A stretch of 50,749 nucleotides of DNA from Minisyncoccota bacterium. GTDB taxonomy: Bacteria > Patescibacteriota > Minisyncoccia > Phycocordibacterales > UBA6065. The stretch spans positions 71,202 through 121,950 of the forward strand of contig DASZXC010000008.1 in the NCBI GenBank assembly GCA_035546035.1, in the 5' to 3' direction. This document shows, piece by piece, positions 7,147 through 41,487 of the stretch (the first letter of the stretch is position 1; every line of letters begins with the position of its first letter). A program made the translations under genes and the position numbers. A model generated the notes under the pieces. The model had not been told where the DNA came from. It saw only the letters and a list, made by a program, of their open reading frames with translations, and ran no database searches.

Positions 7147-7200
7147 CAACTTTTCAAACCAAAACTCATTTGCTACAAATGAGGGGCACTCAAGAAAAAC

Positions 7201-12893: not shown

Positions 12894-13170
12894 ATCGGTA
12901 TTGGTTGTTCCCAGTATATCTCTTATATTTCCTTTAAGAAAAATGTTGCTGCTGTTGGTATTGGGGATATGGGGATATCTCGGAATATAGCCCAGACATT
13001 AGCTCTTTTCGGAAAATTTTTCCACTATCCTGTTCATATCCACGGAAAGCTTTTAACAACTTCCGCGCTTTTTGAAAGATCGCCCGACTTATCCGAAACT
13101 CTCCACATATGTCTCCCGCGCATATCCCCAGCTCTACCCCAAAGGTTTCCCTGGCCTATCCACAGCCTCT
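12894..13170. promoter_or_regulatory. candidate oriC: DnaA-box cluster in the dnaA-dnaN spacer
   Basis: Matches to TTATCCACA: TGGGGATAT twice in overlapping tandem (12962-12970, 12970-12978), ATATCCACG (13036-13044), TTATCCGAA (13089-13097), ATATCCCCA (13122-13130), CTATCCACA (13156-13164, 8/9). An AT-rich stretch lies at 12918-12946. Confidence 0.55.
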
Positions 13171-14514: not shown

Positions 14515-14644
14515 TGGTCGCGCTGATGAAGTGAAGCAAGTATAAATCGCTTCAGAGAATTGTAGTACTTGTGGTCGCGAAGTAAATGTGTTAATAATAT
14601 GTGAACAAGTTGTTAACAGAGTCAGTTGCTTACTACCACGCCTT

Positions 14645-14782
14645 ATGGCAATCGTATACAAGACCAGGAATCGAAAACGAGCTCGCGCGCACGGCTTCCT
14701 CGCCCGCAAGAACTCTCCTACCGGCAAGAAAGTGCTCGCGCGAAGGCGCCACAAGGGCCGCAAGAGGATCGTGAAGGCATAA
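14645..14782 (+). CDS. rpmH: 50S ribosomal protein L34
   Basis: MAIVYKTRNRKRARAHGFLARKNSPTGKKVLARRRHKGRKRIVKA. The start was trimmed from the track ORF. Confidence 0.9.
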   Translation: MAIVYKTRNRKRARAHGFLARKNSPTGKKVLARRRHKGRKRIVKA

Positions 14783-14794
14783 ATCTCGCGCGCA

Positions 14795-15124
14795 ATGCTC
14801 AAAAAGAGAGATCGCCTCACGGCGAAGGACATAGAAAGCCTCTCTCTCGGAAAAAGCGTCTTCGGGACGCTTATTTCTTTGAGGCACATTCCCTCTAAGA
14901 AGGCGGGCTTTTCGGTGAGCGCTTCCAAAAAGGCGTTTCCCACCGCCGTCTCTCGCGGCCGCGCGCGGAGACGCGTATATGCGGCCATCGAGAAATCGCT
15001 CGGGTCGGTGAAAGCCACGGCATTCGTCATGATCATCCCGAAGAAAGAAGCTCTCGCGGCGCCGTTCGGCGATCTTGCTGCGGAGATCGGGTCTCTTTTC
15101 AAGAAGGCGGGGCTTCTGGATTAG
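14795..15124 (+). CDS. rnpA: RNase P protein component
   Basis: 109 aa basic protein directly after rpmH, with the RL..KDIE..L N-terminus typical of RnpA. Confidence 0.85.
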   Translation: MLKKRDRLTAKDIESLSLGKSVFGTLISLRHIPSKKAGFSVSASKKAFPTAVSRGRARRRVYAAIEKSLGSVKATAFVMIIPKKEALAAPFGDLAAEIGSLFKKAGLLD

Positions 15125-15170
15125 GATTTTCGGCCGGGAATTGATACCTTATACATACCTAACAAATAAT

Positions 15171-15899
15171 ATGCACGCGCTTTACACCACGTTGGTCTAC
15201 AATCCGCTCTATAATGGCTTCATACTCCTCATAGACGCAGTCCGATTCATTCCGTGGCTTGATGTCGGAATGGTCGTGATCCTCTTTACCGTCATCGTCC
15301 GTCTCATTCTCTTCCCTCTTTCGCGCAAAGCGGCCCGCACCCAGGTCGTCATGAGGCAGGCAGAGCCTGAATTGGCCGCTATAAAGGAGAAATACAAGAA
15401 TGACAGACAGGCTCTCGCCGTCCAGACTATGGCTTTCTATAAAGAGAAGAAGATCAATCCGTTCTCCATGTTCTTCCTTCTCATCATACAGCTCCCTATC
15501 CTCATCGCCCTCTATCATATCTTCTACACGTCGGGTCTTTCGACCATACACACTGATATCCTCTATTCGTTCGTAAGCATTCCGCCGGCTATCGGCACCC
15601 ATTTTCTCGGACTCTTCGACCTCACCCAGAAAAGCTTCTTCCTCGCCCTCCTCGCGGCGGGATCGCAGTATTTCCAGATTCATATTTCCACGCCGAAAGC
15701 TCGCCGGGACGGAGAAGGAAGGCTGACCCAGGAGAGCATGATGCATATGATGATGAAATTCATCATGCCTATCATGATCTTTCTTATTTCATCTTCGATC
15801 GCGTCGGCTCTCGCCATATATTGGACGACGAGCAACCTCTTCATGATCGGGCAAGAGCTCTACGTGAGGCGGCAGATTTCTAAAGAAAAACTCTCATAA
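15171..15899 (+). CDS. yidC: membrane protein insertase YidC (short form)
   Basis: Start trimmed to MHALYTTLVYNPLYNG. YidC/Oxa1 core ..KEKYKNDRQALAVQTMAFYKEKKINPF... It follows rnpA. Confidence 0.88.
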   Translation: MHALYTTLVYNPLYNGFILLIDAVRFIPWLDVGMVVILFTVIVRLILFPLSRKAARTQVVMRQAEPELAAIKEKYKNDRQALAVQTMAFYKEKKINPFSMFFLLIIQLPILIALYHIFYTSGLSTIHTDILYSFVSIPPAIGTHFLGLFDLTQKSFFLALLAAGSQYFQIHISTPKARRDGEGRLTQESMMHMMMKFIMPIMIFLISSSIASALAIYWTTSNLFMIGQELYVRRQISKEKLS

Positions 15900-15950
15900 T
15901 ATAAAAGGACGTCCCAGGGCTTGGCGGGACGTCCTTTTATATTATGAGAG
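15891..15950. terminator. 25-bp-stem palindromic bidirectional terminator (copy B of the conserved-core hairpin family)
   Basis: CTCTCATAATATAAAAGGACGTCCC / AGGGCTTGGC / GGGACGTCCTTTTATATTATGAGAG. It overlaps the yidC stop and sits between convergent genes. Confidence 0.7.
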
Positions 15951-15951
15951 T

Positions 15952-17181
15952 CTACTTTAGATTTAACCTCCAGACGGTCAGATCGTTTTTGTCAGTGAAT
16001 ACGATGACATTCTCTCCCTGATCGAGAGACGGGTTGACGATGTCCATGGAAATACCCGCTTCGAGTTCCGGGTCGAGGATGTCGGTCGTCTCCCCCGTGA
16101 CGGCGTCTATCTTCCAGAGGCTGTCGGCGAACGCGACCTTGCCCTTATACCAGTCGTCAGGATAGCTTGCTGCCGCCGGAGACTTTGGAATGGCGCAATA
16201 GACTACCGTCTTCTCTTTCTTGCTCCAGACACACTTGTCTATGATGGTTCCGATGTCGAGGTCGCGCTTCACCGCCTTTTTAACGTCATATACTGCTGTT
16301 CCCATGCTATTTCCGTTCGCGCCCGTATAGAGCATAAAAGCCTCGTCGGAGCTCAAGAGTCCCTGAAGGCCTGGTATGCGGTCTATCGTAGGGACCATCG
16401 CTCCCGTGGACATATCGAGGATATATGCCGATCCCTGCATGCCGGCGCTCGGTCGCGCGAACAAAAGAACGCTGTTCGATGCCCAGGTCGCTTTCCAGTC
16501 CCCGAATGAAGAATTGAAGACGCCGGTCTTCCCTGTACCGTCTATGTTAGCCCTGTATCCCTGGGCGCCGCTCATGCTTTCATCCAAATAGAAGATCCTT
16601 GAACCTAAGACGGCTATATTTTCGATATCGTCCGCGAGGAATGTACCCTCGATGGTTTTCGTAGTGGTCGATATCCTGCCGAGGAACGTTCGGATTGTCC
16701 CCTCGTTATCTTTGAGGTAGCGAAGGACGACGTTCTGGCCATTCGTCGCCCACAATGCCTCCCGGATCTTCGGTATGGTTATGTTCGATATCTGGTCCGA
16801 AGAGCTCGAATCACTTCCTGTTTCGATGACATGGCCCGTCGCGCGCTCGACATAGCGGATGATCGTCGAGCTGCCGACATCGAACGCCACCGCGCCTGCG
16901 GTCGGGACGGTGGAGATGCGCCTCAATCGGGCGGGGCCGGTCTGATTGCCGCTCAAATCGATCGTTCCCCCGCTGCTCGCGTCTCCCGTCTGGTCCCCGC
17001 TACCGGTATTCGCATTTCCGTTCGATGCAGGACCCTGACCGAAAGGAAACGGATTCGACGAATCAACGTCGGTGTTCCCGGAATTCGTCCCGCTCTTGTC
17101 TCCTGAAATGAAATACCAGCCGATCGCTCCGAAGAAGGCGAGGATGACTGCTATTATCACAATGAATGCTTTTCTCGACAT
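15952..17181 (-). CDS. hypothetical membrane-anchored protein (last gene of the T4SS-like operon)
   Basis: N-terminal TM (FIVIIAVILAFFGAIGWYFI), a G/S/N-rich linker, then ~300 aa of beta-rich sequence (beta-propeller-like impression only). Confidence 0.6.
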   Translation of the reverse strand: MSRKAFIVIIAVILAFFGAIGWYFISGDKSGTNSGNTDVDSSNPFPFGQGPASNGNANTGSGDQTGDASSGGTIDLSGNQTGPARLRRISTVPTAGAVAFDVGSSTIIRYVERATGHVIETGSDSSSSDQISNITIPKIREALWATNGQNVVLRYLKDNEGTIRTFLGRISTTTKTIEGTFLADDIENIAVLGSRIFYLDESMSGAQGYRANIDGTGKTGVFNSSFGDWKATWASNSVLLFARPSAGMQGSAYILDMSTGAMVPTIDRIPGLQGLLSSDEAFMLYTGANGNSMGTAVYDVKKAVKRDLDIGTIIDKCVWSKKEKTVVYCAIPKSPAAASYPDDWYKGKVAFADSLWKIDAVTGETTDILDPELEAGISMDIVNPSLDQGENVIVFTDKNDLTVWRLNLK

Positions 17182-17182
17182 A

Positions 17183-18310
17183 TTATTGTGCGGCTTTTAT
17201 CTGTCCGTATGTTCCCTGCATGGCAGTCCGGTATTCGTCTATCTTCTTTAACTGGGCTATGACCGTTACGCGATACCGATCGGCTCCCGTTGGATCGCTC
17301 TGCTTGAGCTGCGCGTATACATGCGATGTTTCTGATAAGAATGACGCTCTCGCCGTCTGGAATTTCTCTTGGCCTGAAGCGAGGGCTGTGGGATAAGCGC
17401 CCGTATTCATGCCGTTGATTATGCTTCCTGCAGCTATGATCACTCGCTGACTTTCCGTATTGATTCGGATATTGGCTTGGGCTTGAGCCTGTGCCGCCGG
17501 ATCGGTTATCTTCGAAGCAGCCTCAGTTTCTATTTTAAGCGCGTCAGCCGCTATCTCGAGCGCTTTGTCCGCGTCGCCCCCGTTCACCGCTTGCGTTATC
17601 TGGAGAGTGCTCTGCTGGGCGGCTGAATCGATCCTTTTGAGGCCCGCATCGATCGTCTTGGCGGTCGCGATATTCTGAGCCTCTTCTAACGCGGCTTGCG
17701 CCTTTGCGATAGATTCAGTATCTCCGCTCGCTTGAGCCGAAATCAAGATAGCCTGGGCGGCAGTGACCGCTCGCTGAGCCTCGGTCTTATCCGCTTCCGC
17801 TTTTTGGTATGCTGTGACCGCGGCATTGGAGTTATTAAGGAGCTCCTGTAGAACGGTTTGGGGCACAGAGCTTCCGCACGGCACGCCATTAGATCCGCAC
17901 GTCGTTGTGAGTGTGTTCAGATTGATATTTACGAGGCTAACGTTTATCGTTCTCAATATGATGTAGGCGCTCAAAAGTATCAGAAGGCCGATAAGGGCAT
18001 GCTGCCAGCGCGCCTTGGCGTCGGTCTTCTGTCCTATCGCTTCGCTTGTAGTATAGAGCACGCCGGCGTATATGATGACGCAGACCGCAAGGATCGCCGC
18101 GATTCCGATCGATATGCCGTAGATATTTTTTACGAGGCTGACTGGATCCGTCGGCTGGTTCTCGGTGAATGCGTTCGGGATTGTCGTGAGCGGCTTGTAT
18201 GTTTCCTGCGCCAACGCTATCTTTGCCGGAGCGAAAATGACGAGAGCGATGAAAACAAGGCCCGTTGCCGCGACCGCTAATTGTAAGGATTTTTTAAAAG
18301 CAGTTTTCAT
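17183..18310 (-). CDS. VirB2/TrbC-like pilin domain fused to a long Ala/Gln-rich C-terminal extension
   Basis: Signal peptide ..AKIALA|QE, then two hydrophobic helices separated by a short basic loop (GISIGIAAILAVCVIIYAGVLY - TTSEAIGQKTDAKARWQH - ALIGLLILLSAYIIL). This is followed by a CGSNGVPC pair and ~230 aa of coiled-coil-like sequence. Confidence 0.55.
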   Translation of the reverse strand: MKTAFKKSLQLAVAATGLVFIALVIFAPAKIALAQETYKPLTTIPNAFTENQPTDPVSLVKNIYGISIGIAAILAVCVIIYAGVLYTTSEAIGQKTDAKARWQHALIGLLILLSAYIILRTINVSLVNINLNTLTTTCGSNGVPCGSSVPQTVLQELLNNSNAAVTAYQKAEADKTEAQRAVTAAQAILISAQASGDTESIAKAQAALEEAQNIATAKTIDAGLKRIDSAAQQSTLQITQAVNGGDADKALEIAADALKIETEAASKITDPAAQAQAQANIRINTESQRVIIAAGSIINGMNTGAYPTALASGQEKFQTARASFLSETSHVYAQLKQSDPTGADRYRVTVIAQLKKIDEYRTAMQGTYGQIKAAQ

Positions 18311-19299
18311 TATTGGAATATGACGAGACTCGCCTGGCCGCCCTGGAGGAGCTTCGTCTTATGTTGGATCAGTATGCCGATATTCGACTGCCCGCCGGCA
18401 GCCCCCGTCGTTCGGAGCGTTATCTCGTTCCTATCTTTGAAATCAGATACCGTCGTATCGTTAAGTGTCCAGTCGATCGAGAGATCGTTCAAAAGCATTT
18501 TAGAAGCCGAAATGTTGAAGGGTTCGGCGCGAAGTGTTATCTCTTCCCCGGCGAGGGTCATCGATCCGGCGAGCGCGCGCTCGTAGACGATGCCGTAAAG
18601 CGGGCTGTTCTCGTAGAAAAGCACTTCCGGAGCAGCCGGGGTTATCGTTATCGTCCTCGTAGCTCCTGCGTCGTGCGATACGGTCGAGACTTCAACGCTG
18701 ATATCGTCGCCTCCGCGCACGTAGCTCGACTGCGTTCCTGTATATGAGTCCTTTCCATATCCCGACTGTGCGCCGTCTGCCATCCCGTTCTTTTTCCAGC
18801 TGTATACAAGGGTCTTCGGGTCTGCCCTTTTGCCGTTCGATCCGACGAGATTCGATATAGCCGTCACCTTGAAAGACGATCCATAGGTTTCAAGCGCCTT
18901 CCCTTTATAGAACGGAGGCGCGTATCCGTCAGATTGCCAGAGAAGGTCAACGCTTCCCGGTCGTATGGTCGCTTTATTCGATACGGTGCCGATATCTATC
19001 GTCGCCACGTTCACAGAGACGCTTATCGCGGCAGTTGCCACCGGGACGCTGATGCTCGTTATGCCCACGCCCTTTTTGAATACCTTACCTTCGACGTACC
19101 AGGTGAAGGTAGCGCGGTCGAGGTCTGTGCTGAAGCTCTGCGCCGAAACCGTCACCGACGTATTCGGACGCGGGAATTCAGGCGAGATCTGAAAGGTCAC
19201 CGGTTCCGCGATGCCGGGAATGCTCTGGGCAGCGGCCGTCGAGACGGAAAAGAGGGCGAGAAAGAGAGCTAAAAGAGTGCTTTTTAACAAGCCAGGCAT
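18310..19299 (-). CDS. hypothetical secreted beta-rich protein
   Basis: Signal peptide MPGLLKSTLLALFLALFSVSTAAA|Q. Its stop shares 1 nt with the next start (TAATG). Confidence 0.6.
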   Translation of the reverse strand: MPGLLKSTLLALFLALFSVSTAAAQSIPGIAEPVTFQISPEFPRPNTSVTVSAQSFSTDLDRATFTWYVEGKVFKKGVGITSISVPVATAAISVSVNVATIDIGTVSNKATIRPGSVDLLWQSDGYAPPFYKGKALETYGSSFKVTAISNLVGSNGKRADPKTLVYSWKKNGMADGAQSGYGKDSYTGTQSSYVRGGDDISVEVSTVSHDAGATRTITITPAAPEVLFYENSPLYGIVYERALAGSMTLAGEEITLRAEPFNISASKMLLNDLSIDWTLNDTTVSDFKDRNEITLRTTGAAGGQSNIGILIQHKTKLLQGGQASLVIFQ

Positions 19300-19332
19300 G
19301 GAAATATTGTATCACAGCGAAAGCAATGAAAA

Positions 19333-19360
19333 AGAGAGCGCGGATGTATTTTTGCTCTCT
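19333..19360 (-). terminator. hairpin with flanking T-runs inside the T4SS-like gene string
   Basis: AGAGAGC-14 nt-GCTCTCT. The minus strand reads hairpin then CTTTTTCATT. It lies between the virB4-like stop (19368) and the next start (19299). Confidence 0.4.
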
Positions 19361-19367
19361 CTTTTTT

Positions 19368-21170
19368 CTACTCTATGGTCTTTTTCGTCTCCTTCATCGC
19401 CAATATCTGCGATGGGTCCGACGTGATTATCTGGTCTTCGGTGTACGAAGCGATGGTCTTTATGGCCACGTGCTTCAGACCGACGAAGAATATGCCCTCG
19501 CCCACGTCGGATTCGAGGAGGAGGTATTTTTCCTCGTCGGTGAGGTTGAATACCTGCTGGAGCCTGTCTATGGACGACGGAGACTGCTTCAAAAGCACCT
19601 GAATGGACGAGTTGGTGATGATCGGAAGGCCATACGGGGATTTAAGGAAGTCGTCCACGTCCTGGGTTATAGTCGCAAGGCCCAGGTAGTATTTGCGTCC
19701 GCGCTTGGCGAGGCCAAGCAAGAACGACGCGGTATCTTCGGATTTCATCATCCACCACGCCTCGTCTATGACGAGGAGGCGCTTCTTGAGGTTCTTCCTG
19801 ACCGCGTTCCATATATAGTGCGTGACGATATACATAGCGACGGGCTTGAGCTCTTCTTCCATGTCGCGAAGCGAGAATACGATGAATTTAGCGCCGATGT
19901 CTACGTTCGTCGGCTTATTGATGAAGCCTGACCACGTTCCCTTCGTATATTTGGTCAGTCGCTGAACGAGAGACTCGCCTCCTTCCATGCCGGCGAGCAC
20001 GAGTTCGAAGTCGGAAAGAAGAGGCGGCTCGGTGTGGGAGAAATCCGAATCAGGCGTAATGTCTTTGAGCGCATACGTTTCGGTGATCGCCTTGTCTATG
20101 ATCGCGTCTTCTTCCGGGGTGAGCCCGCCCATCATGATCCTGAAGAGGCCGACGAGGTTGATGATATTGGAGCGAAGCACGTCCGCGGGCGATTCGTCTT
20201 CGCGCGGCGCCGGAAGGTCGAACGGGTTGATGTGGTGCTCGGAATTGAGCGAGATGTTGAAATATTTGCCGCCTGTAGATTCGGCGAGGAATTCATATTC
20301 TCTTTCAGGGTCTATGACGATGACGTCGGTGTCGAACATGAGCGTTCGAAGGATCTCGAGCTTCGTCGCATATGATTTGCCGGCGCCCGATTTCGCGAAC
20401 GTGATCGAGTTGTAATTTTCCAGGGAGAATCGATCGAAAAGCACGAGCGACGAATTGTGCCTATTGATGCCGTAGAGGATGCCTTTGTCCGACGTCAGGT
20501 CGAACGATATGAACGGGAAAAGACTCGAAAGAGGGCTTGAATTAAGCTTGGAATGGACGAGAAGTTCGTCGGACGCCGTAGGGAGGTTGGATTTATATCC
20601 CTGCTCTTGCTGGAAAAGCGCCGGCTTTACATAGACGAGCTTTGATTCGAGGATCGATTTGATTTCGGATTCGGTTTTGTCGAGCTCCTGCTCCGATTCG
20701 CCGTATATGGAGATGTAGACGCCCACGTCGAAGAGCTTTTCCTGCGCCTGCTGGAGCTGGTCGCGAAGCTGTTCGAGATCCTGGTACGCGGTGTCGAGCA
20801 TCGGATCGCGGACGAGGCCTTTCTGCTCGCGGATGCTGATCTGGCTCTGCACCTCGGCCACTTTTTTCTGGAACGTGCGGAGCACTTTCTCGGTCTCGAC
20901 CGGATGGACGAAGATAGAGATGTTAAAGACCTTGTCGAGGTTAATGATCGGAGCGAACCACGATTCCGAGAGGAAGCGCGGATACGATATAACGAAGAAC
21001 GAGCGCACGATCTTGTCGCCCAAAGAGAGTTCGCGCGGCGAGACCTTTAAAGCCGAAGGCGCGATGACGTCTTTTAATTCCAAAACACCCGCCTCGTATA
21101 TCTCCGAAGGCAAAATCGGCGCTATGGACGCCTGACTCTCCTTTTTTTTAAGAAAATCGAATATTCCCAT
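19368..21170 (-). CDS. virB4: VirB4/TrsE-like T4SS ATPase
   Basis: Walker A FAKSGAGKSYATK, Walker B KKRLLVIDEAWWMM, N-terminal ..IAPSALKVSPRELSLGDKIVRSFFVISYPRFL typical of VirB4-family proteins. 600 aa. Confidence 0.88.
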   Translation of the reverse strand: MGIFDFLKKKESQASIAPILPSEIYEAGVLELKDVIAPSALKVSPRELSLGDKIVRSFFVISYPRFLSESWFAPIINLDKVFNISIFVHPVETEKVLRTFQKKVAEVQSQISIREQKGLVRDPMLDTAYQDLEQLRDQLQQAQEKLFDVGVYISIYGESEQELDKTESEIKSILESKLVYVKPALFQQEQGYKSNLPTASDELLVHSKLNSSPLSSLFPFISFDLTSDKGILYGINRHNSSLVLFDRFSLENYNSITFAKSGAGKSYATKLEILRTLMFDTDVIVIDPEREYEFLAESTGGKYFNISLNSEHHINPFDLPAPREDESPADVLRSNIINLVGLFRIMMGGLTPEEDAIIDKAITETYALKDITPDSDFSHTEPPLLSDFELVLAGMEGGESLVQRLTKYTKGTWSGFINKPTNVDIGAKFIVFSLRDMEEELKPVAMYIVTHYIWNAVRKNLKKRLLVIDEAWWMMKSEDTASFLLGLAKRGRKYYLGLATITQDVDDFLKSPYGLPIITNSSIQVLLKQSPSSIDRLQQVFNLTDEEKYLLLESDVGEGIFFVGLKHVAIKTIASYTEDQIITSDPSQILAMKETKKTIE

Positions 21171-21171
21171 A

Positions 21172-21810
21172 TTAGTTCAAAGGTATAGGCTTCTCGGTAT
21201 CGCCCGGGTTGAAGATCTTGTAGAAGAGTTCGACGATCTCTTCCGTGCCGAGCTCTATCGTGCGGATGCCGCAGCGGACGAGGCCTTGCGTCACCACCCC
21301 TACTCTTTGCTCGAGCTGGCTACGATGCTCTTCGAATTGGGCGAGCTTCTGCTCCGCGGTCTCTTCCGACGTCTTCTTTTTGCCGATGATGCCGGAAACC
21401 GTTCCCGTGCTGATAGCTGCGGGCGAATACGGCACGACGACGAAGAACGTCTTGGTCATGATGTTCGAATTCTCCGTGAAATTCTTGATGAATTGTATGT
21501 ATTCGCGCGTCTGGATCTTGAGGAGATCTCCGACCTGTTCGCGGAGTCGGTTCTCGAGAAGCGCTATATAGGGCCTGATATCGAGCTTCCTCGACTGGAT
21601 GAATATCTGGACCGAAAAATCGAGCGAGTTCAGGAAATTCTGGAACTGCATGATGATAGACTGCTGTTCGTCAGCCGATTTGAGGGCGAAGTTGAGCGAC
21701 GATGCCATGACGATAGCGCGAAGAGATTCGTCTTTCAGTATGACGATGCCCTGACGGATCTCCTTGATAGGTACGAAATCTTGCGTTGTCTTGGCGTTGG
21801 TGGCTGCCAT
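21172..21810 (-). CDS. T4SS-associated protein, possibly a detached VirB4 N-terminal-like domain
   Basis: The stop lies 1 nt before the virB4-like ATG. The sequence TQDFVPIKEIRQGIVILKDESLRAIVMASSLNFALKSADEQQSII..FLNSL.. resembles the very N-terminus of Gram-positive VirB4-type proteins. 212 + 600 aa is roughly normal VirB4 length. Confidence 0.55.
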   Translation of the reverse strand: MAATNAKTTQDFVPIKEIRQGIVILKDESLRAIVMASSLNFALKSADEQQSIIMQFQNFLNSLDFSVQIFIQSRKLDIRPYIALLENRLREQVGDLLKIQTREYIQFIKNFTENSNIMTKTFFVVVPYSPAAISTGTVSGIIGKKKTSEETAEQKLAQFEEHRSQLEQRVGVVTQGLVRCGIRTIELGTEEIVELFYKIFNPGDTEKPIPLN

Positions 21811-21825
21811 TTATTCAGTATATCA

Positions 21826-22272
21826 CTAGATATTGCTCTTCCCTCCCTGGCTTTGGGCCGGATTCTGGCTCTGCTTGATGTCGAGCGACCAGGTCAGGTC
21901 TTTCAGCTTGGAATCCGAAAGCTTCGGCACATAGAAATCGAGATTTCCCGACGTTGCGGGCGCCACGGCCTTCTTGGCGACGATAGGCTTGTCTATTTTT
22001 TTCCAGATATAGAGCTTGTTGCCGACGTAATACGTGAATGCTGCCTCGACGACGTTGATGAACGGTTTGTTATTGATCTTGTAGAACGCCAGAGCAAGGA
22101 CGAAACCGAGGATCGGCACGATCAAGATGGCGTCTATGACGATATTCTTGATAAACGTATATATAAGGAATGAAAGACCGGCCCCTCCGAGGAGATAGAG
22201 GAATTGTTTGAGCGTCAGGGGGCCGAATATCTTGTCTTCGACCTCTATGAATTGAGGGACTTGAAAGCGCAT
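21826..22272 (-). CDS. PrgI-family (VirB3-like) two-TM T4SS protein
   Basis: MRFQVPQFIEVEDKIFGPLTLKQFLYLLGGAGLSFLIY.. matches the PrgI-family N-terminal signature (EDKI.G.LT.RQ) followed by two TM helices. It lies upstream of virB4 as in Gram-positive systems. Confidence 0.7.
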   Translation of the reverse strand: MRFQVPQFIEVEDKIFGPLTLKQFLYLLGGAGLSFLIYTFIKNIVIDAILIVPILGFVLALAFYKINNKPFINVVEAAFTYYVGNKLYIWKKIDKPIVAKKAVAPATSGNLDFYVPKLSDSKLKDLTWSLDIKQSQNPAQSQGGKSNI

Positions 22273-22310
22273 ATGGTTACGCGCTTATTATAGCGCATTT
22301 AACAGGCTGA

Positions 22311-22886
22311 TTACGCGAGAGGCTCGCGGTACGGGTCAGACGCGTATTTCGTAGGCATATTTACGGGAGCCTTCATCTTTTCGGCGATGAAATCTTTAGA
22401 AACCGCGTCTTTCGATGGCTCCGGGACGATTTCGCGCGGCTTTGCTGGGCCTGGGATCGTCTGATCTGCTGCCGATATAGGATGCACGGCCGGCGCGGGG
22501 TTCTCGATTTCGGAGAGGATCTGGTCGCGGTCGTTCGAAGGAGCCTCTTCTTTCGGCATTTGAGATTCCGCTGAATCGGCCTCCTGCATCTTTTCGCGGA
22601 TCTTGAGGAAAATAGTGCGGTTAACCTGCTCGCCTATTCTGATAGCGGCTTCATGGGCTATAGCAAGGCGTTTTTCTATGCTCGGAACGAAATCAGCTGA
22701 TTGCTTGAGGCCATAAAGAACCATGAATACCTCGTCTTCGAGGAGGCCGAGCTTGTCGAGAAGGAGAGAGTTGTCCTTTCCTGTCGCGCTCAAGTCGCGC
22801 GTGAAATCGTCCGAGAGCATGAAATTGCGGAGAATCGGAGGGAGTTTTTTGAACGCTTCTTTTTTCTGTTCAGGCGTGAATTCCAT
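22311..22886 (-). CDS. hypothetical soluble protein in the T4SS-like operon
   Basis: 191 aa with no TM segment or signal peptide. Tightly packed (5 nt after the upstream stop). Confidence 0.55.
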   Translation of the reverse strand: MEFTPEQKKEAFKKLPPILRNFMLSDDFTRDLSATGKDNSLLLDKLGLLEDEVFMVLYGLKQSADFVPSIEKRLAIAHEAAIRIGEQVNRTIFLKIREKMQEADSAESQMPKEEAPSNDRDQILSEIENPAPAVHPISAADQTIPGPAKPREIVPEPSKDAVSKDFIAEKMKAPVNMPTKYASDPYREPLA

Positions 22887-22891
22887 ATGCT

Positions 22892-25255
22892 TTAGAATAT
22901 CGATCCTTTACCCGCGTTGTTAAGCCAGTCGTTAAGCTTGTCGAATCCGGCGACGCCGTTGTTCGCCATGTTCTCTATATATTCGCGCATAACCTTGCGA
23001 GTCGTGTCGTCGACGTCGTTCTGGACCATCTTGTCGAGGATGTCGGTATTGCCCCTTCGCGCGAGCACGGCCATCACCTCTTGGTTGACCGCAGGCCTTC
23101 CTCCCTGGTCATTCCTGAAGAATTTGTCTCCAAGCTTCGATATTTCGCCTGCCTGCATCTTTGCTATCGCTCTTTCGATCTCATCGGCCGGTCTGGTCTG
23201 GGCAATAGCGTAAAGATCTTCATAGCGGGCATCCCTCATGCGGATCCTTGTTTCGTTCGTCAGCCTGTTGCTGCCGACAAGTTTGCTGAACTTGTCATAA
23301 TCCATCGATTCGGGCTTGACCACGGCAGGCTTCCTGAGGGTTTCCGGAGGAAGATTGCTAAGCTCTTTATCCGAATGATTCCTGAGAGCGGCTCGCACCA
23401 CGTCAGGCGAAGGGTTCGGAGCATTGACCGCTTTTTCGACGTCAGAGAGTCGGGCTTTCCATATCTTTGCCTTACCCTCGTCAGTTTCAGCCTTATCGGC
23501 AAGGTATTCGGCTTGGCTTTCCGTGATGGTCCGCATGAATTCCTCGCTTCCGAGGGCTTTTTTACTGATCTTTTCGAGCTCGCGATTGCCGAGCTTCTGC
23601 GTGCGGTCAGAGACGGTGAGCTTCGCATTCTTGAATGCGGCTTGTGCGGCATTATACGTTGCGTCGCCTGGACCAGCTCCCGCTCGTTCGAGGCGTTCGA
23701 TCTCGAGCCTCTGCTCTTCGACCGCGGCGAGCTGCTTGAGGATCTCCTGATTCGTAAGCTCGATCTTCTTCTCCTCGTTCCATTCCCCGATCTGCGTCTT
23801 GACCGCCTTCGCGTCGGCGCCCTTTATGTCGATCTTCGAGCCCGTGTTGCTCGAAACCGTGCTAGAAAGCAATTCCCCGACGCTGCCGCTGCCCGTAGGA
23901 AGGTTTCGGACGTCCCATGTTCCCGACTTCATCTTATCCACCGACGCCTGTCCGATATCCTTGAGTCCCTGTCCAGGAGCCTTCACGTACTTCAGTATCT
24001 TGCTGTCGCCTGTGAGGATCGGGGGAAGATTCGTGCTGACGGTCTTCGAATATGCGGCGTACCTGTCTTTCAAGCCGCCTTCCGTAGAGATCGCGGCGCC
24101 GAGGCCGCGACCTGCCGCGCGCAGGCCCGTCGTGAGCCCGCCCGTCGCGTATGTGCCGATCGCGTTCACCGCAAGCTTGCCGAGACCGTCAGCGACGCCG
24201 CCGAGAGTCTTGCCCATCTGACCGCTCCATTTTTTCGATATGCTCAAGGTGCTCTGAAGGAGGAATATGATGATGAAGTAGTTGAAATACTGCGCGACCT
24301 TGAACGAGGTTCCCGGAACATCGGTCGCTCCGTTTACGCCGGATGCGCTCGTGAACGCGGTCCCAAGAGCGTCGATCGAGTTTATGAACTGAAGCGATAT
24401 ATAGAGCATGATCAGGAATACGAGCGGGAACATCGCGGCGTTCGTGAGTTCGTTCCACCATTCTTCCGAGTACGGAGCGACTTGGGGCAATACTTTGCCC
24501 ATGAATCCGACCGGCGAGAATACGAGAAGGAATAGAAGCGTGATGCTTCGCGCCATGAAAAGCACCGCCGCATAGAGGAATATATAGATGGCTATGAGCG
24601 TGATGGCGAGACGGAGCATCCTGCCGATGAAGTTCTGCGACGGATCCGTCACCGGCTTCGCCTGGGCTTTCCAGAGATCGACGAGGCCCATTCGGTCGGT
24701 TATGAGGCTGCTCAAGCTTGGATTCGTGGCATTCGAAGCCGCGAGCGACTTGTTCACGCCCGTGTAGAGCCAGTTTCCGAAGACGTTGCTCACGTCGATC
24801 GCCGCCTTGGTTATGAAAAGGCTGAAGTTTATGAGTATAGCCGCGATTACGACGTTTTTAAGCGCGGTTCCCGTATTGTATCCTGCGCCGCTTATGATCG
24901 TCTTCAGGCTTATGAATATAAGAATGAATATGAAGAAGAGGTTCGCTATGTCGCGGATGATGGACCAGCCCAGGTTGATCGCCGGCGAAAGGCTGAAGAT
25001 GTATGCGGTGTGAAGACCGAACTGGATCGCCGCGTCGAGGATGACGCCGGAGAGGTAGAGGACGCCTGCCGCGAGCGGAAGGATTAGGATCTCGAACGTA
25101 TAGCTGACGATCCCTCCTACGAAGTCTGCTGCGTTGAACACGCTTCCGATCACATCGGCGACGCCAAGCGCGTGCGCGAAATGCGGCATCGCGAAGAACG
25201 CCGCCGCGAGCGGAAGGACGAGAGCCGTTATTTTTCTGTTAAGGAATCGCTTCAT
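22892..25255 (-). CDS. VirB6/TrbL-like polytopic membrane protein with a long hydrophilic C-terminal domain
   Basis: Signal/TM N-terminus, then at least 6 hydrophobic segments in the first ~400 aa. This is followed by ~390 aa of charged, partly coiled-coil sequence. Position and topology fit VirB6. Confidence 0.65.
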   Translation of the reverse strand: MKRFLNRKITALVLPLAAAFFAMPHFAHALGVADVIGSVFNAADFVGGIVSYTFEILILPLAAGVLYLSGVILDAAIQFGLHTAYIFSLSPAINLGWSIIRDIANLFFIFILIFISLKTIISGAGYNTGTALKNVVIAAILINFSLFITKAAIDVSNVFGNWLYTGVNKSLAASNATNPSLSSLITDRMGLVDLWKAQAKPVTDPSQNFIGRMLRLAITLIAIYIFLYAAVLFMARSITLLFLLVFSPVGFMGKVLPQVAPYSEEWWNELTNAAMFPLVFLIMLYISLQFINSIDALGTAFTSASGVNGATDVPGTSFKVAQYFNYFIIIFLLQSTLSISKKWSGQMGKTLGGVADGLGKLAVNAIGTYATGGLTTGLRAAGRGLGAAISTEGGLKDRYAAYSKTVSTNLPPILTGDSKILKYVKAPGQGLKDIGQASVDKMKSGTWDVRNLPTGSGSVGELLSSTVSSNTGSKIDIKGADAKAVKTQIGEWNEEKKIELTNQEILKQLAAVEEQRLEIERLERAGAGPGDATYNAAQAAFKNAKLTVSDRTQKLGNRELEKISKKALGSEEFMRTITESQAEYLADKAETDEGKAKIWKARLSDVEKAVNAPNPSPDVVRAALRNHSDKELSNLPPETLRKPAVVKPESMDYDKFSKLVGSNRLTNETRIRMRDARYEDLYAIAQTRPADEIERAIAKMQAGEISKLGDKFFRNDQGGRPAVNQEVMAVLARRGNTDILDKMVQNDVDDTTRKVMREYIENMANNGVAGFDKLNDWLNNAGKGSIF

Positions 25256-25257
25256 AG

Positions 25258-26880
25258 CTATTGGACGGTGAATTCAGTCGAGAAGTTCTTCGCGCCTCCC
25301 TCTCCGTCGCTGACGGACGTGTCGATCACATATGTGCCCGGCATGGATGCGAAGGACGACCTGCTTGCTGTCCTGACCGTTCCGCTGAACTTCAGGATGT
25401 ACGGAGAGTTCTCGTCAGCAGAGACGTTCGACCAGGTTTCGCTCCACTCTCCGTTCGTCGGATATGTGCTGATGCTCGTCCCATCTGACCTGCCTGTCGC
25501 GATGCGGAAATCGGAGAACGGGCCGCTGAACGGAACGAATGCGTTGTTCGCTTTCGAACGGAGGGTCGACGTGACTCTCATGTTCGTCGCGTGCTTGTTG
25601 ACCGCGATGCGAAGGACGAAGAGGAACGGAGTCGTCACGCTCGTCACGCTCGTCTTGTCGTCGATCGAGAGGGTGATCGAAAGGGGCTGGGCGGAATCAT
25701 CTGTCACGTCAGGCGTGCCTGTTCCCGAAAGCAAGGGAAGATAATTCGCGCCGTTAGAATCCAGGAACGCGCCGTCGATGTCGCTCTCGTCGGTGAGCTG
25801 ACTTACGCCGCTGTCATATGCGCTCATAAGCGCGGGGTCGATAGAGCCGCCGCCCAAAGCGCCCCCATATGTAGCGCTATTTCCGGAACCGTTGGATTTT
25901 TTGCCTGCGCCGAGGAGGCCCTTCGCCCCGTTTACCACCTGCAGCATCATCTGGTTCGTAAGGGCGCCGACGATGGCGTCTATGTCATCGGCGACCTCAA
26001 GCTGGCGGACCCCGGAGCCGAGTGTGACCTCAAGCTGGCTTTCGACGACGGTGCCCGGCGTGCGCGTTTCCGCGCCGGCGCAATTTTCACTAGCCGGATC
26101 GAGATTGCTCGGATCGCTGCCGTCGTACGTCTCCGTACAGACGCTCCAGGATCGGAATCCTTTGCCCCAGTCGAGCTCCCTGTTCTGGACTTCGAGCCTC
26201 TGCGCGATCTGTCGCGACAATTCGTTCTGCGCGAGGACGGTCGCGCCGTAAACGTTGTTCTGCGGAGCGACGGTCGTCTGGAGCCAGGTGTCCCAGCCGC
26301 CCCTGTTATTGCCGTTCGCGAAGCCCGTGACGTTGTCTTCGATCTGGGACAGCGTACATGAGTATCGCTGATGGTACGGCAGATACGTTTGGGCGACTGC
26401 TATGCGCACTTGGAGCGAGAACGGGCTACACAGGAATCCTGCCCTGAGATCGCGGTCTATGAATTCGCCGATCGCCATATCGGTAGTGTCCTGGATAAGG
26501 CCATGAAGATCCTGTACGAACGACGGGCTGCCGTGGAAGCCGCTGTTGATCCACGCGATGATGCTTCCCGTGACGTTTTGGAGCATCGCTTTCGCCAGCC
26601 TGACGGCGATCGGCTTCAATACGCAGTCTTGGAAGAAGCTTCCGTAACTCGCTCCCGCGCCGACGATGCCCGCAGCGTCTCCGCCCGGAGCAGAGACTGT
26701 GACGCCGATGACTTTTGCCGTCGCGGAGAGGCCGACTGCGGCCGCGACGGCCCCGGCGACTACGGATGCGCAGGTCGAGGCGGCCTCAGTCTTTGCCGGG
26801 TACGAAAGAAATGCGCTCGGTATGAGAAGCGAGCCCATAAGGACCAGGACGACCGCTTTTGTGCTGAAACGAGAGAGCAT
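25258..26880 (-). CDS. hypothetical large secreted protein
   Basis: Signal peptide ..PAKTEA|AS. A Cys-containing conserved-looking N-terminal half (..IIAWINSGFHGSPSFVQDL..) and a beta-rich C-terminal half. Confidence 0.6.
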   Translation of the reverse strand: MLSRFSTKAVVLVLMGSLLIPSAFLSYPAKTEAASTCASVVAGAVAAAVGLSATAKVIGVTVSAPGGDAAGIVGAGASYGSFFQDCVLKPIAVRLAKAMLQNVTGSIIAWINSGFHGSPSFVQDLHGLIQDTTDMAIGEFIDRDLRAGFLCSPFSLQVRIAVAQTYLPYHQRYSCTLSQIEDNVTGFANGNNRGGWDTWLQTTVAPQNNVYGATVLAQNELSRQIAQRLEVQNRELDWGKGFRSWSVCTETYDGSDPSNLDPASENCAGAETRTPGTVVESQLEVTLGSGVRQLEVADDIDAIVGALTNQMMLQVVNGAKGLLGAGKKSNGSGNSATYGGALGGGSIDPALMSAYDSGVSQLTDESDIDGAFLDSNGANYLPLLSGTGTPDVTDDSAQPLSITLSIDDKTSVTSVTTPFLFVLRIAVNKHATNMRVTSTLRSKANNAFVPFSGPFSDFRIATGRSDGTSISTYPTNGEWSETWSNVSADENSPYILKFSGTVRTASRSSFASMPGTYVIDTSVSDGEGGAKNFSTEFTVQ

Positions 26881-26920
26881 TTATCTCGATAAGATATAGG
26901 TATCGAGATAAATTATACCA

Positions 26921-27889
26921 TTACTGCATAAGGATATATCCACTTTCCGATGAGGAAAACGATATGCTCTGCTTTTTGAAGTACGATTTGATGTATGCGA
27001 GCGGCAACGTGACCGATTCGATGCCGTCGTTGTAGCGGGAAATCATTTTCGTCGCTCCGACAGGGTCGGAGTCCATGTACGTCATTCCGCGGACGCCTTC
27101 GAGGATCGCTGAAATCGAATTAAGGAGGGCGATATGGGCCGCTTTCAGCGGATTCGGCACCGAAAGAGCCAGTATCTTATTTCGTAGAGACGTATAATGA
27201 GCTATATTTTGAGCCAATTTCGGCAATTCCGATACATCTTCAGTGTCGTTGTAACGGGCGATGATGTAAAGTTCCTGTTCATAGCCTTTAGGCAAAGGTT
27301 CTTCGAGGATAGCGCCTAATTTATTGCCGTATTGCTTCAAAGATTGGGAAGAAATGCTGCTCGATATCGCAATATCAGATTCTGTATAGGTTTTTTCCTC
27401 CGTCGGGGAGCCATAATCTCGTTCCAAGAGCCTATTCACGAGGTCTGTTCCCGTATTTTCATCTATTTGAGCCCCCGAATTCTTCAAATTCACGTATTCT
27501 TGGAAGAATGCGCGGGCGAATCTGTCCGTTGCCGTCAATTTTTCAGGGGTTTCGGTCGCCGCTCTTGTTTCAAGGACCGCGATCTTGTCTTCTATGGTCG
27601 AAGTGCCGAGGATTATATCCAGATTCGAAGGCTCGCCGTTGGCTATTCCTTGCTTTACGCTCGCATCGGCGATGAGGCCAACCTTTTCCTGGATCGTCGA
27701 GGCTTTCGCAGAGCTTTTTGTCTTTATAACTACAGCTCCGACGATCAAAAGCGCTGCGACGAGCGTCGCGACGCCTATTTTGGTCCTCAAAAATTTGAAA
27801 ATCACGACGTCAGTATACCATCGTGTGATATCATGAAGCCATGAAGTTGAAGATCGTTGTTTTTTTGCTTCTCCTGGCGTTCGCGGCAC
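26921..27889 (-). CDS. hypothetical N-terminally anchored membrane protein (first gene of the T4SS-like operon)
   Basis: TM GVATLVAALLIVGAVVI. The longest ORF starts at 27889 and overlaps the divergent ORF at 27841. An in-frame GTG at 27805, preceded by TATACT 6 nt upstream, is an alternative start. Confidence 0.55.
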   Translation of the reverse strand: MPRTPGEAKKQRSSTSWLHDITRWYTDVVIFKFLRTKIGVATLVAALLIVGAVVIKTKSSAKASTIQEKVGLIADASVKQGIANGEPSNLDIILGTSTIEDKIAVLETRAATETPEKLTATDRFARAFFQEYVNLKNSGAQIDENTGTDLVNRLLERDYGSPTEEKTYTESDIAISSSISSQSLKQYGNKLGAILEEPLPKGYEQELYIIARYNDTEDVSELPKLAQNIAHYTSLRNKILALSVPNPLKAAHIALLNSISAILEGVRGMTYMDSDPVGATKMISRYNDGIESVTLPLAYIKSYFKKQSISFSSSESGYILMQ

Positions 27890-28185
27890 CTTTTTCTTTC
27901 CCGGATGCGGCCTTTGCGGCTCCTGGGCTCTCTATCGGGGGCACGGTTCTCTTCCAATATGTCTGTAACACCGGGCTTCTGCTCTATATAAAATCGGCGA
28001 CGCCGCCGTACGCGGTGATGCCCCTTATGTGGCTTTGGGGGGAGCTTCCGTTTTCGAAATATATCCCGCCGCATCCGGGCCAGCAGATCCTCGGCGTCGC
28101 CGCTCCGACGGTAGTTCCGTGCGTTCTCGGCTATGTGCCGATCGGCGTTGGCTTTCCGATCTTGTTCCACGGATCGAGCATATAG
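27841..28185 (+). CDS. hypothetical small secreted protein
   Basis: Clean signal peptide MKLKIVVFLLLLAFAAPFSFPDAAFA|AP. 114 aa, Pro/Gly/aromatic-rich, 3 Cys. The overlapping minus ORF is Arg-rich junk. Confidence 0.45.
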   Translation: MKLKIVVFLLLLAFAAPFSFPDAAFAAPGLSIGGTVLFQYVCNTGLLLYIKSATPPYAVMPLMWLWGELPFSKYIPPHPGQQILGVAAPTVVPCVLGYVPIGVGFPILFHGSSI

Positions 28186-28206: not shown

Positions 28207-28980
28207 CTATCGCGCGAGCTCGATCCATGCGTCGAGGGGCACATCCTCCGCGCGTATATTTTCATCAAGTCTCAGCTCGGCGAATTTTCGAGCAACTTCT
28301 TCTTTCGATAGAACGGCATCGAGGTTCTTCGCGAGCCTCTTCCGTTTCTGCCCGAAGCCCGCTTTGACGACGTCGAAGAATCTTTCTTCCGCCGCACGAT
28401 CGCCGAAAGGATCTCGGATATCGGAAAGCTTTATCACTGCTGAATCCACGTTCGGTATCGGAAAGAAATTTCCCCGCGAGACGCTCATCGATATCTCCGG
28501 GCGCGCGTATGCCTTCACCGACAATGAAAGGACGCTCTCTTTCCCGTCTCGCGCGACGATCCTCGCTGCGACTTCTTTTTGCACCATGAGGACCATGAGC
28601 GACGGCTTGTTCTGCGCGGAAAGAAAATCCCTGATGATACCGCCGGTGACGTAGTAAGGAATGTTAGCGATCACTTTGTACGCGCTGTTCGTGACTTCGT
28701 TCAAATCCATTTCCATAATATCGTCATGAACGAGTTCGAGCGCACCCTTCGCGATGTCTTCCTTGAACGTTTCGGCGAGGACGGGAATGAGGCGGTCGTC
28801 TTTTTCGATCGCCTTCACGTGCGCGCCTGCTTCGAGGAGCGCCTTGGTAAGGACGCCCTTGCCCGGGCCGATCTCGATCACCCGCTCTCCGGGGACGACG
28901 TTGCCCGCATTGACGATAGCTCCGACGATGCGCGGCGATATGAGGAAATTCTGGCCGAGAGACTTTTTCGCAAAAAGCAT
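28207..28980 (-). CDS. rsmA: 16S rRNA (adenine1518/1519-N6)-dimethyltransferase
   Basis: KSLGQNFL, the SAM motif VIEIGPGKGVLT, and NIPYY. Confidence 0.92.
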   Translation of the reverse strand: MLFAKKSLGQNFLISPRIVGAIVNAGNVVPGERVIEIGPGKGVLTKALLEAGAHVKAIEKDDRLIPVLAETFKEDIAKGALELVHDDIMEMDLNEVTNSAYKVIANIPYYVTGGIIRDFLSAQNKPSLMVLMVQKEVAARIVARDGKESVLSLSVKAYARPEISMSVSRGNFFPIPNVDSAVIKLSDIRDPFGDRAAEERFFDVVKAGFGQKRKRLAKNLDAVLSKEEVARKFAELRLDENIRAEDVPLDAWIELAR

Positions 28981-31080: not shown

Positions 31081-31258
31081 TAGAGGGCACTGAGCATCAG
31101 ATTCCCTGAAATATGGCTTAATAGAGCCATAAATTACAGAAATGCTGTGGTTCCCGGATAAAGCAAGCACTATTTCTACGTCTCCTATAACGCCTTCGCC
31201 TCGTTTTGTCGGTTTTGGCGGTCAAAAAGGTAACATATGGCTTAAAATCGGGCTTTAC

Positions 31259-35484: not shown

Positions 35485-35867
35485 ATAGATATTATACGTC
35501 AGAAAGGTGTTACCATTATAGGGAATCCGCACTTCAACTCCCAAATTCTCGTTGCCGTGAAATCGTTGAAACCTTCTCCTGTTCTTTCGAACATATCGCT
35601 CGGTCTCTTCGAAGGGGTCCTCGTCGCAGTGCTCCTCTTCTTTGCCAAGACGTCCGTGACGGGTCTCCATGACTGGTTTATTGCCGTCGACGCGGCAGTC
35701 ATCTTTCTTATCGTGGTCATATCTAATAACGTCCACAAGCTCGTCATCTGCGATAGCCCCGTTCCCTCGCGGAACCGCTTCCTCGAGTCGCTCTTCGGGA
35801 TCGCCGCATGCATGGGCTCGACGATCGTCATCCTCACGTTCTTCGATCGCCATATCTGACCATATGC

Positions 35868-36866: not shown

Positions 36867-36912
36867 GGTTCTGAAAGGATAGCACATATATATTGAAAAT
36901 GCAAGCTTTTTA

Positions 36913-37336: not shown

Positions 37337-37354
37337 GCTATAATATTGTGCGAC

Positions 37355-41480: not shown

Positions 41481-41487
41481 CCTAGTT

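Follow-up and report, generated by a model that had tools for sequence, protein, structure and literature searches.

A ten-gene locus next to dnaA in a Paceibacteria genome is very probably a vertically inherited type IV secretion system of the Patescibacteria clade

Much of bacterial diversity is accounted for by the Patescibacteria, which live attached to other microbes, and to our knowledge no representative of the Paceibacteria has been cultivated or genetically manipulated. The type IV secretion systems (T4SSs) of the Patescibacteria are considered a new branch that is by now established within the superfamily (2025 review; PMC12857230), and were the first T4SSs shown to be essential for the growth of their owner (PMC10633639, PMC12857230). 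Here we describe a cluster of ten intact, tightly packed minus-strand open reading frames (ORFs; 15952-27889) in a 50,749-nt stretch of a Minisyncoccota genome (assembly GCA_035546035.1, contig DASZXC010000008.1, positions 71,202 to 121,950 of the forward strand), the whole of which is referred to as the window. The cluster is very probably a Patescibacteria-clade T4SS in a Paceibacteria (Parcubacteria) genome, that is, a chromosomally fixed and vertically inherited derivative of the monoderm (MPF_FATA) conjugation machinery that is no longer linked to a relaxase; this confidence applies to the identity of the locus and not to its substrate. The reading holds but was already known, because publications from 2023 to 2025 had described the system, including the missing relaxase and the position near dnaA (PMC12102498, PMC10633639, PMC12857230). 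The value of the window is therefore that of an annotated Paceibacteria reference and not of a discovery: it is a clean and complete example, showing rigid fixation beside the origin and a motor more conserved than DnaA. Added here are fold-level notes on five accessory proteins, a protein ending in DPYRE, a hypervariable pilin tail of 250 aa, an accessory protein with domain swapping and another without a VirB8-like fold, conserved internal -10 elements that would delimit leaderless sub-operons, and a quantitative contrast with DnaA and DnaN.

The closest description is that of Quinonero-Coronel et al. (2025, Microb Genom; PMC12102498), who surveyed 3,035 Patescibacteria genomes, found VirB4 in 2,417 of them, and assigned nearly all of these proteins to a single clade within MPF_FATA. 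The commonest partner was TrsD, followed by VirB3/PrgI, VirB6 and VirB2-like pilins, and in Paceibacteria and Microgenomatia the locus was located near dnaA, dnaN, ksgA, rnpA and rpmH. The window shares with these systems a VirB4 with adjacent TrsD, a PrgI-type VirB3, a VirB6-like protein, a PF18895 pilin, the absence of a nearby relaxase, a position near dnaA, dnaN and ksgA (rsmA), and a VirB4 related to that of MPF_FATA. Nothing is different in kind, although the window carries a single pilin gene and not an array.

Using transposon sequencing (Tn-seq), Wang et al. (2023, Cell; PMC10633639) found the T4SS genes SEML1_0006-0019 of Southlakia epibionticum ML1, pilins included, to be essential for epibiotic growth, in a system without relaxase and coupling protein. 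The window shares with this T4SS the core order VirB6-like, PrgI, TrsD-like and VirB4, the presence of PF18895 pilins in the cluster, the lack of a recognisable relaxase or coupling protein in the cluster, and a chromosomal location (at the start of the genome numbering). However, S. epibionticum encodes two large VirB6-like proteins and, on the opposite strand, six divergent pilins, whereas the window has one long-tailed pilin. Moreover, S. epibionticum carries an NTF2-like (VirB8-like) protein as well as peptidase and lysozyme genes downstream of virB4, whereas the window encodes no NTF2-like protein and, in place of those accessories, has three proteins predicted to form, respectively, a beta-propeller, Ig-like domains and a helical bundle.

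With the monoderm T4SSs of the MPF_FATA class (TrsD/TrsE of pGO1, Prg of pCF10, and the CD1110 family of Clostridioides difficile CTn2) the cluster has in common a CD1110-family VirB4 scoring over the family cutoff, a PrgI-type VirB3, the TrsD-type separation of the VirB4 N-terminal domain as in pGO1, and the absence of a VirB7/VirB9/VirB10 outer-membrane core. It differs from them in lacking a relaxase, a type IV coupling protein (T4CP), a PrgK/TraG-type hydrolase, VirB8-like proteins and an LPXTG adhesin, in having a VirB2-like pilin, which those systems lack, and in not being located on a mobile element; its VirB4 is 28-36% identical to theirs.

The assignment is carried by the motor and the membrane core. 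The 600-aa product of 19368-21170, corresponding to the C-terminal P-loop part of VirB4, matched the NCBIfam model conju_CD1110 with an E-value of 3e-111 and 373 bits (curated cutoff 325 bits), was also matched by Pfam P-loop_TraG (2e-25), AAA_10 and DUF87, and contained both a Walker A (KSGAGKSY) and a Walker B (LLVIDEAWWM) motif. Its best NCBIfam models were those of CD1110 and of Mycoplasma VirB4, and the plasmid VirB4 proteins nearest to it (28-36% identity) were CD1110-family members from Bacillota (Firmicutes) and Actinomycetota (Actinobacteria). The ORF located 1 nt upstream of virB4 (21172-21810) matched positions 99-233 of the NCBIfam model VirB4_plasma (E 3.3e-12), the TrsD/TraD model NF041427 (2.4e-6) and the N-terminus of CD1110 VirB4 (4.8e-6), all three matches being below the cutoffs for full-length proteins. 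Because this product matches both the VirB4 N-terminal region and TrsD/TraD, VirB4 is split into two genes, with the N-terminal domain encoded separately as a TrsD-like protein, and TrsD was likewise a separate ORF of 206-233 aa in the 77 related loci introduced below. Directly upstream, the small membrane protein encoded at 21826-22272 matched the PrgI/VirB3 family (Pfam PF12666) with an E-value of 2.9e-10 and 41 bits, over the gathering score of 27 bits.

The polytopic product of 22892-25255 was predicted to have a signal peptide, at least six transmembrane (TM) segments (residues 48-296) and a hydrophilic, coiled-coil-like and hypervariable tail of ~390 aa (TM helices and signal peptides were read from hydropathy throughout). 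Its Pfam TrbL match (E 3e-4, 21.1 bits) was below the gathering score of 25.9 bits, TrbL was matched by 5 of its 38 orthologues (best 5.4e-5), and a profile search of PDB sequences did not return any VirB6 chain, the hits being coiled-coil noise that came from the tail. The gene lies upstream of PrgI-TrsD-VirB4, in the same place as SEML1_0011/0013 in S. epibionticum. On account of this topology and gene position, we assign the product with moderate confidence as an 'extended' VirB6-like protein.

The protein encoded by the pilin gene (17183-18310) starts with a signal peptide and has TM helices at residues 66-84 and 106-124; its C-terminal 250 aa form an unusual tail that is hypervariable and rich in Ala, Thr and Gln. 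It matched the Pfam family T4SS_pilin (PF18895) with an E-value of 4e-5, its 24 bits narrowly missing the gathering score of 26.6 bits; PF18895 was matched by 42 of the 45 orthologues (best 7.4e-11) and TrbC/VirB2 (PF04956) by two of them. The lengths of the orthologues ranged from 112 to 555 aa.

A preliminary description of this DNA had already proposed a Gram-positive (monoderm)-type T4SS with a VirB4-like ATPase carrying both Walker motifs, a PrgI/VirB3-like protein, a VirB2/TrbC-like pilin and a VirB6/TrbL-like protein. The first three calls agree with the CD1110/MPF_FATA-type VirB4 score and motifs, with PF12666, and with PF18895 in the window protein and its orthologues, and together with the VirB6-like protein they bear out the monoderm type. 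The VirB6/TrbL claim held for the polytopic topology, the tail and the gene position, but not for the TrbL family match, which stayed below threshold. Six further products had been left without a name; five remain so, but the sixth is the TrsD-like protein.

A search limited to one genome per species recovered at least 539 loci that encode a VirB4 relative. The best 80 of these all came from metagenome-assembled genomes of Patescibacteria, with VirB4 identities of 79-98%, which matches an earlier guess that the host genome is that of a Patescibacteria episymbiont. They comprised Paceibacterota/Parcubacteria, including Taylor-, Zambryski-, Nomura- and Campbellbacteria, with some records labelled Saccharibacteria in the source. 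Since the nearest VirB4 from outside the Patescibacteria, on a plasmid, reached at most 36% identity, these identity levels suggest that the VirB4 of the window is a member of the Patescibacteria clade.

Gene order across Patescibacteria, the comparison of which the preliminary description had suggested, was examined by tblastn with 19 window proteins at 77 related loci, and the block pbp1-dnaN-dnaA-yidC-[ten genes]-rsmA-uvrD was colinear at 75 of them. At the same 77 loci, median identity was 82% for VirB4 (a somewhat inflated value, the best 80 loci having been picked by VirB4 similarity, although the contrast within genomes is still clear), 66% for TrsD, 57% for PrgI and 27-36% for the accessory proteins, compared with 57% for DnaA, 56% for UvrD and 49% for DnaN in the same genomes. 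The VirB4 ATPase is thus under stronger constraint than DnaA. Block-wise conservation, computed from mafft alignments of three proteins, gave 35-41% identity for the core of the pilin versus ~10% for its tail, 23-49% for the TM core of the VirB6-like protein versus 11-17% for its tail, and 32-41% for the core of the accessory protein g9 (see below) versus 11-14% for its C-terminus. Membrane cores are conserved, and exposed tails or domains are hypervariable or swapped.

The chromosomal surroundings fit this picture of fixation. On one side the cluster is flanked by PBP1, dnaN, dnaA and yidC (15075-15899, +), and on the other by rsmA/ksgA (28207-28980, -), uvrD/pcrA, a LysM-M23 peptidase gene and comM, so that its earlier placement between yidC and rsmA, near the replication origin, was accurate, with dnaA and dnaN just past yidC. 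Pfam scans of ~45 ORFs across the window detected no relaxase, VirD4/TcpA coupling protein or VirB11, in line with the preliminary description; this absence, including that of the coupling protein, is a statement about the 50-kb window only. Neither did these ~45 ORFs include a VirB1-like hydrolase of a conjugation module, the LysM-M23 peptidase (31142-32263) being the sole wall hydrolase nearby, and Pfam and NCBIfam returned no VirB9 or VirB10 family match in any cluster protein. A search for direct (att-like) repeats around the cluster yielded only short imperfect chance matches, agreeing with the repeat boundary having gone unseen before, and the GC content of the cluster (0.51-0.58) equalled that of its flanks without a step. 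The colinearity at 75 of 77 loci, the lack of flanking repeats and the even GC content support the proposal that this is a core chromosomal apparatus and not a conjugative element; the relaxase, coupling protein and flanking att sites that would mark an integrative and conjugative element (ICE) were not found within the window.

The remaining five genes encode lineage-specific accessory proteins, numbered here by their position in the cluster: four are envelope or exported proteins and one (g7) has no TM helix. Structural comparisons made use of AlphaFold2 models and Foldseek searches against the PDB for g9 and g10, and of profile searches of PDB sequences for the others. The first gene of the cluster, g10, encodes a bitopic membrane protein, in which a single TM helix (residues 9-27) is joined by a disordered linker to an ectodomain modelled as an all-helical bundle (mean confidence, pLDDT, of 77.9, with the helices over residues 90-294 above 90). 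It had no Pfam or NCBIfam match, and its best Foldseek hit against the PDB had an E-value of 0.09. Its N-terminal TM helix and length of ~300 aa, similar to pIP501 TraM, had made it a candidate VirB8; this was rejected, because the model is all-helical and Foldseek found nothing better than the hit mentioned, so that the modelled fold of g10 is not NTF2/VirB8-like. The gene occupies 26921-27805, within an ORF that is open to 27889. The GTG at 27889, previously taken as its start, is probably wrong, as public gene calls and 26 homologues (292-305 aa) favour the GTG at 27805, which would yield a protein of 294 aa.

In the neighbouring g9 (25258-26880), a signal peptide is followed by a helical domain (~residues 80-350) that contains Cys and is conserved; the C-terminal domain is variable and is predicted to be an Ig-like beta-sandwich. 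Its model had a pLDDT of 68 overall and above 90 in the C-terminal sandwich (residues 400-540), which in Foldseek resembled Ig-like domains of adhesins and pilins such as SdrD, ACE and BcpA; Foldseek picked up this domain alone, and a PDB profile search came back empty. Certain homologues carry F5/8-type-C, PKD or beta-helix domains. The protein is a candidate surface or tip adhesin. A possible VirB5/TraI link of g9 through DUF4141, a domain of Bacteroides tra operons near traG and traJ, was considered too weak to use: DUF4141 was seen in 6 of the 68 homologues, at residues 20-60 beside the signal peptide and below cutoff.

Between the VirB6-like and PrgI genes, g7 (22311-22886) encodes a small protein whose N-terminal ~100 aa form a conserved helical domain. 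The linker that follows is disordered and Pro-rich, and the protein ends in an invariant DPYRE, in which D184, Y186 and E188 never varied. An ORF ending in DPYRE(P) was present at this position in 46 of 55 loci, while the rest of g7 diverges fast. No significant match was obtained in Pfam, NCBIfam or the PDB. The protein is presumably cytoplasmic, and possibly acts as an adaptor or as a substrate.

Downstream of the motor, g3 (18310-19299) begins with a hydrophobic N-terminus resembling a signal peptide. A PDB profile search matched it to the Ig-like protein Hoc (E 0.0015), and its 45 orthologues returned BiPBP_C (9), Ig_3 (3), PKD_3 (2), TIG (one) and MG4 (one), on which grounds g3 is predicted, with low-to-moderate confidence, to be an exported protein of Ig-like beta-sandwich repeats. 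The gene was found at 78 of 80 loci, always directly downstream of VirB4. The last gene, g1 (15952-17181), encodes a bitopic protein with one TM helix (residues 7-25) followed by a Gly/Ser/Asn-rich linker and an ectodomain in which C317 and C329 are invariant. Its PDB profile search matched TolB beta-propellers over ~120 residues (E 0.004-0.03), and its orthologues gave weak PD40, DPPIV_N and DUF5050 matches, so a TolB/PD40-like beta-propeller can be proposed for this ectodomain, with low confidence.

The function of the system is probably something other than conjugation. The most likely role, which we put forward tentatively, is that of a contact-dependent conduit or attachment organelle required for life on the host cell, exporting proteins to that host, with the import of DNA or nutrients, or adhesion alone, as live alternatives. 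In such an apparatus, hexamers of VirB4, together with TrsD, would dock on PrgI and the VirB6-like protein in the single membrane, and VirB4 would supply the power for extracting the pilin and polymerising it into a wall-crossing pilus or conduit. The beta-propeller, Ig-like and helical proteins that are exported might then form or decorate the wall-spanning and extracellular part, with the variable C-terminal domain of g9 and the pilin tail touching the host cell. A further elaboration, which is speculative and which we consider doubtful, is that g1, g3, g7, g9, g10 and the long pilin tail constitute a Paceibacteria-specific extracellular module of a pilus-bearing monoderm T4SS, in which host range would be set by the pilin tail together with the exchangeable domain of g9, and the DPYRE peptide of g7 would serve as a docking or secretion signal replacing the coupling protein.

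Several points weigh against the identification of the locus as a Patescibacteria-clade T4SS. The placement of VirB4 in that clade derives from identity levels as a proxy; the TrsD match is far under its curated cutoff, and the pilin (24 versus 26.6 bits) and the VirB6-like protein (21.1 versus 25.9 bits) of the window score under the gathering thresholds of PF18895 and TrbL; and the fold calls of g1 and g3 depend on E-values of 1e-3 to 1e-2. Moreover, neither a VirB8-like nor a VirB1-like component was found in the cluster, and the 50 kb in view leave room for a coupling protein or relaxase elsewhere in the genome. VirD4-like T4CP homologues were in fact reported in 2,918 genomes, mostly far from virB4 (PMC12102498), and T4SS essentiality was established in one Saccharibacterium alone (S. 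epibionticum ML1), the accessory genes of which differ.

An alternative that we consider unlikely holds that the cluster is an adhesion organelle only, in which the VirB4 machine serves solely to build a pilus of the VirB2 type, carrying variable tails and an adhesin at its tip, while nothing is translocated. The conservation of the pilin across orthologues, the hypervariability of its tail, the swapping of adhesin-like C-terminal domains among g9 homologues and the lack of a coupling protein in cis to recruit substrates would all suit such an organelle, as would the essentiality of the pilin array in S. epibionticum (PMC10633639). However, type IV pili have already been implicated in host adhesion of Saccharibacteria (PMC10633639, PMC12857230), and the very high conservation of VirB4 and the retention of a VirB6 channel protein fit translocation as well.

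It also seems improbable that the system is an importer, pulling DNA or other macromolecules from the host into an epibiont that is unable to make nucleotides. The model for this would be the archaeal Ced system (CedA/CedA1/CedA2/CedB), in which, as reportedly described by Beltran and colleagues in 2023, a VirB4-like ATPase is combined with a polytopic membrane protein and a VirB2-like pilus, while relaxase and T4CP are both absent in cis. The chromosomal cluster studied here follows the same component logic, and ComM (32260-33798), UvrD, RuvB and a PilB-type ATPase are encoded nearby. In the class ABY1, moreover, comF, recG and radA co-localise with T4SS genes (PMC12102498). NCBIfam CedB indeed matched the VirB4 of the window partially (E 7.9e-9), but this marginal similarity covers only the ~70 residues (438-508) around Walker B, scores 34.7 bits where the cutoff is 700, and is far weaker than the CD1110 match of 3e-111. 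Furthermore, the main Patescibacteria VirB4 clade is not grouped with the archaeal DNA importers (PMC12102498), and natural transformation of S. epibionticum, which takes place via ComEC and type IV pili, is dispensable while its T4SS is essential (PMC12857230), a finding that neither proves nor excludes ComEC-independent import.

Very unlikely is the proposal that the cluster serves conjugation or chromosomal DNA transfer, with a relaxase, coupling protein and oriT that are located elsewhere or too divergent to be recognised. The VirB4 is of the conjugative CD1110/MPF_FATA type, just 50 kb of this genome are in view, and besides the distant VirD4-like T4CP homologues mentioned above, very divergent relaxases were not excluded in the published survey (PMC12102498). 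However, that survey found relaxases in only 103 of 3,035 genomes and inter-class transfer of VirB4 to be rare, and the T4CP homologue of S. epibionticum is non-essential, whereas its T4SS genes are essential (PMC12102498). The strict vertical synteny beside oriC in 75 of 77 genomes likewise argues against this proposal. Lastly, the notion of an ordinary or decayed ICE, prompted by the conjugative ancestry of the T4SS genes and by a tyrosine recombinase gene (37307-38347) beside a low-GC, tRNA-rich stretch, is effectively refuted, with the recombinase 9.4 kb off beyond housekeeping genes, no direct repeats flanking the cluster, an unchanged GC content, an identical insertion context in 75 of 77 species-level genomes, and all ten genes intact with an ATPase more conserved than DnaA. 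The earlier claim that no integrase was present accordingly stands for the immediate neighbourhood of the cluster, but not at the distance of this XerC/D-like gene, which is separated from the cluster by rsmA, uvrD, the M23 peptidase gene, comM, a dksA-like gene, a NYN-domain gene and rpsO.

Returning to the T4SS cluster itself, its ten co-oriented ORFs appeared in the ORF list at the coordinates first given for them, and the junctions had been described correctly, with gaps of 1 nt (17181/17183 and 21170/21172), 2 nt (25255/25258) and 5 nt (22886/22892), and with one base shared by two ORFs at 18310. Just ahead of g10, within a putative promoter region (27806-27995), an extended -10 element (TGGTATACT) was read from the sequence at 27820-27812. 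Because 6 nt separate its hexamer from the GTG at 27805, a leaderless start of g10 is suggested. Across the window, a Shine-Dalgarno-like sequence preceded 2 of 38 genes, whereas a TATAAT-like -10 hexamer ending 4-16 nt before the start codon preceded 8 of 38 (background 2.9%), four of which belong to the cluster (g10, PrgI, TrsD and g3; elements at 27812-27820, 22287-22292, 21817-21822 and 19306-19311, for example). Such a hexamer was also found upstream of 59% of the g10 orthologues, 73% of those of PrgI, 48% of those of TrsD and 59% of those of g3, compared with 17-30% for the other cluster genes. As these elements recur in front of the same four genes, the 'operon' is probably made up of several leaderless units, namely [g10-g9-VirB6-g7], [PrgI], [TrsD-VirB4] and [g3-pilin-g1], and the counts across the window suggest that leaderless mRNAs are widespread in this genome.

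Where yidC and g1 converge, a perfect hairpin (15890-15951) with 26-nt arms that are 100% complementary (inverted repeat search and RNA fold; -37.2 kcal/mol, z = -12.4) marks the 3′ end of the cluster; it is a predicted bidirectional intrinsic terminator. At the other end, a terminator scan revealed a terminator-like hairpin for rsmA at 28008-27995. In the same intergenic area, orf122 (27802-28170, -) was considered as an eleventh gene and rejected: it was conserved solely in the closest relative (49%) and had no family match, public gene calls put a different ORF on the opposite strand, and the stretch was treated as non-coding spacer or promoter region.

On the yidC side, the motif TATCC[AC]CA had nine matches in the window, four of them in the 277-nt spacer between dnaN and dnaA (12894-13170), versus 1.09 expected for the whole window. 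Because these DnaA-box-like matches cluster there, the spacer is the probable oriC, with a variant DnaA box, at 2.8 kb from the T4SS cluster. Near-matches to the motif, such as TATCCACG and TTTTCCACT, were also present in the spacer, while the strict Escherichia coli DnaA box (TTATCCACA, allowing at most one mismatch) showed neither significant enrichment nor clustering. The longest dnaA ORF (13171-15102, -; 643 aa) and the divergent yidC ORF (15075-15899, +) overlap at the 5′ end of the latter. As the DnaA_N domain begins at residue 201 and orthologues cover ~77% of the protein, the start of dnaA is probably ~150-200 codons downstream; the start position of yidC is uncertain too.

The remaining part of the window is largely housekeeping. 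A PilB/GspE-type (T2SSE) ATPase gene with an MshEN domain (2722-4410, +), of the kind that drives type IV pili, is separated from the cluster by housekeeping genes; together with ComM (32260-33798, -), a competence-associated Mg-chelatase-like ATPase, and the LysM-M23 peptidase (31142-32263, +), it lies within 15 kb of the cluster. The M23 peptidase could be the missing VirB1-like wall hydrolase, although tblastn detected it in the ±10-kb flanks of only about nine related loci. Pfam at E <= 0.001 gave no match for the ORFs 34288-35853 (-; 521 aa), 1820-2539 (+; 239 aa) and 6928-7491 (-; 187 aa).

The XerC/D-like recombinase gene (37307-38347, +; Phage_integrase and SAM_1 domains) is followed by genes for an exo/endo-phosphatase and a CCA-adding enzyme, and then by a stretch of low GC content (41000-45200; 0.42-0.46) holding four tRNA genes, a SocA/Panacea antitoxin-like gene (43292-43897), a 147-aa ORF without assignment and a GIY-YIG/T5orf172 gene (44442-45170). 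The recombinase and this stretch may represent a small integrated island unrelated to the T4SS cluster. Between rpsO (36600-36887, -) and the recombinase gene, 123 nt at 36998-37120 (+) matched positions 108-309 of the bacterial small-subunit rRNA model over its gathering score (63 bits, E 1e-16), with no further 16S sequence nearby; possible readings are a 16S fragment and an rRNA mimic.

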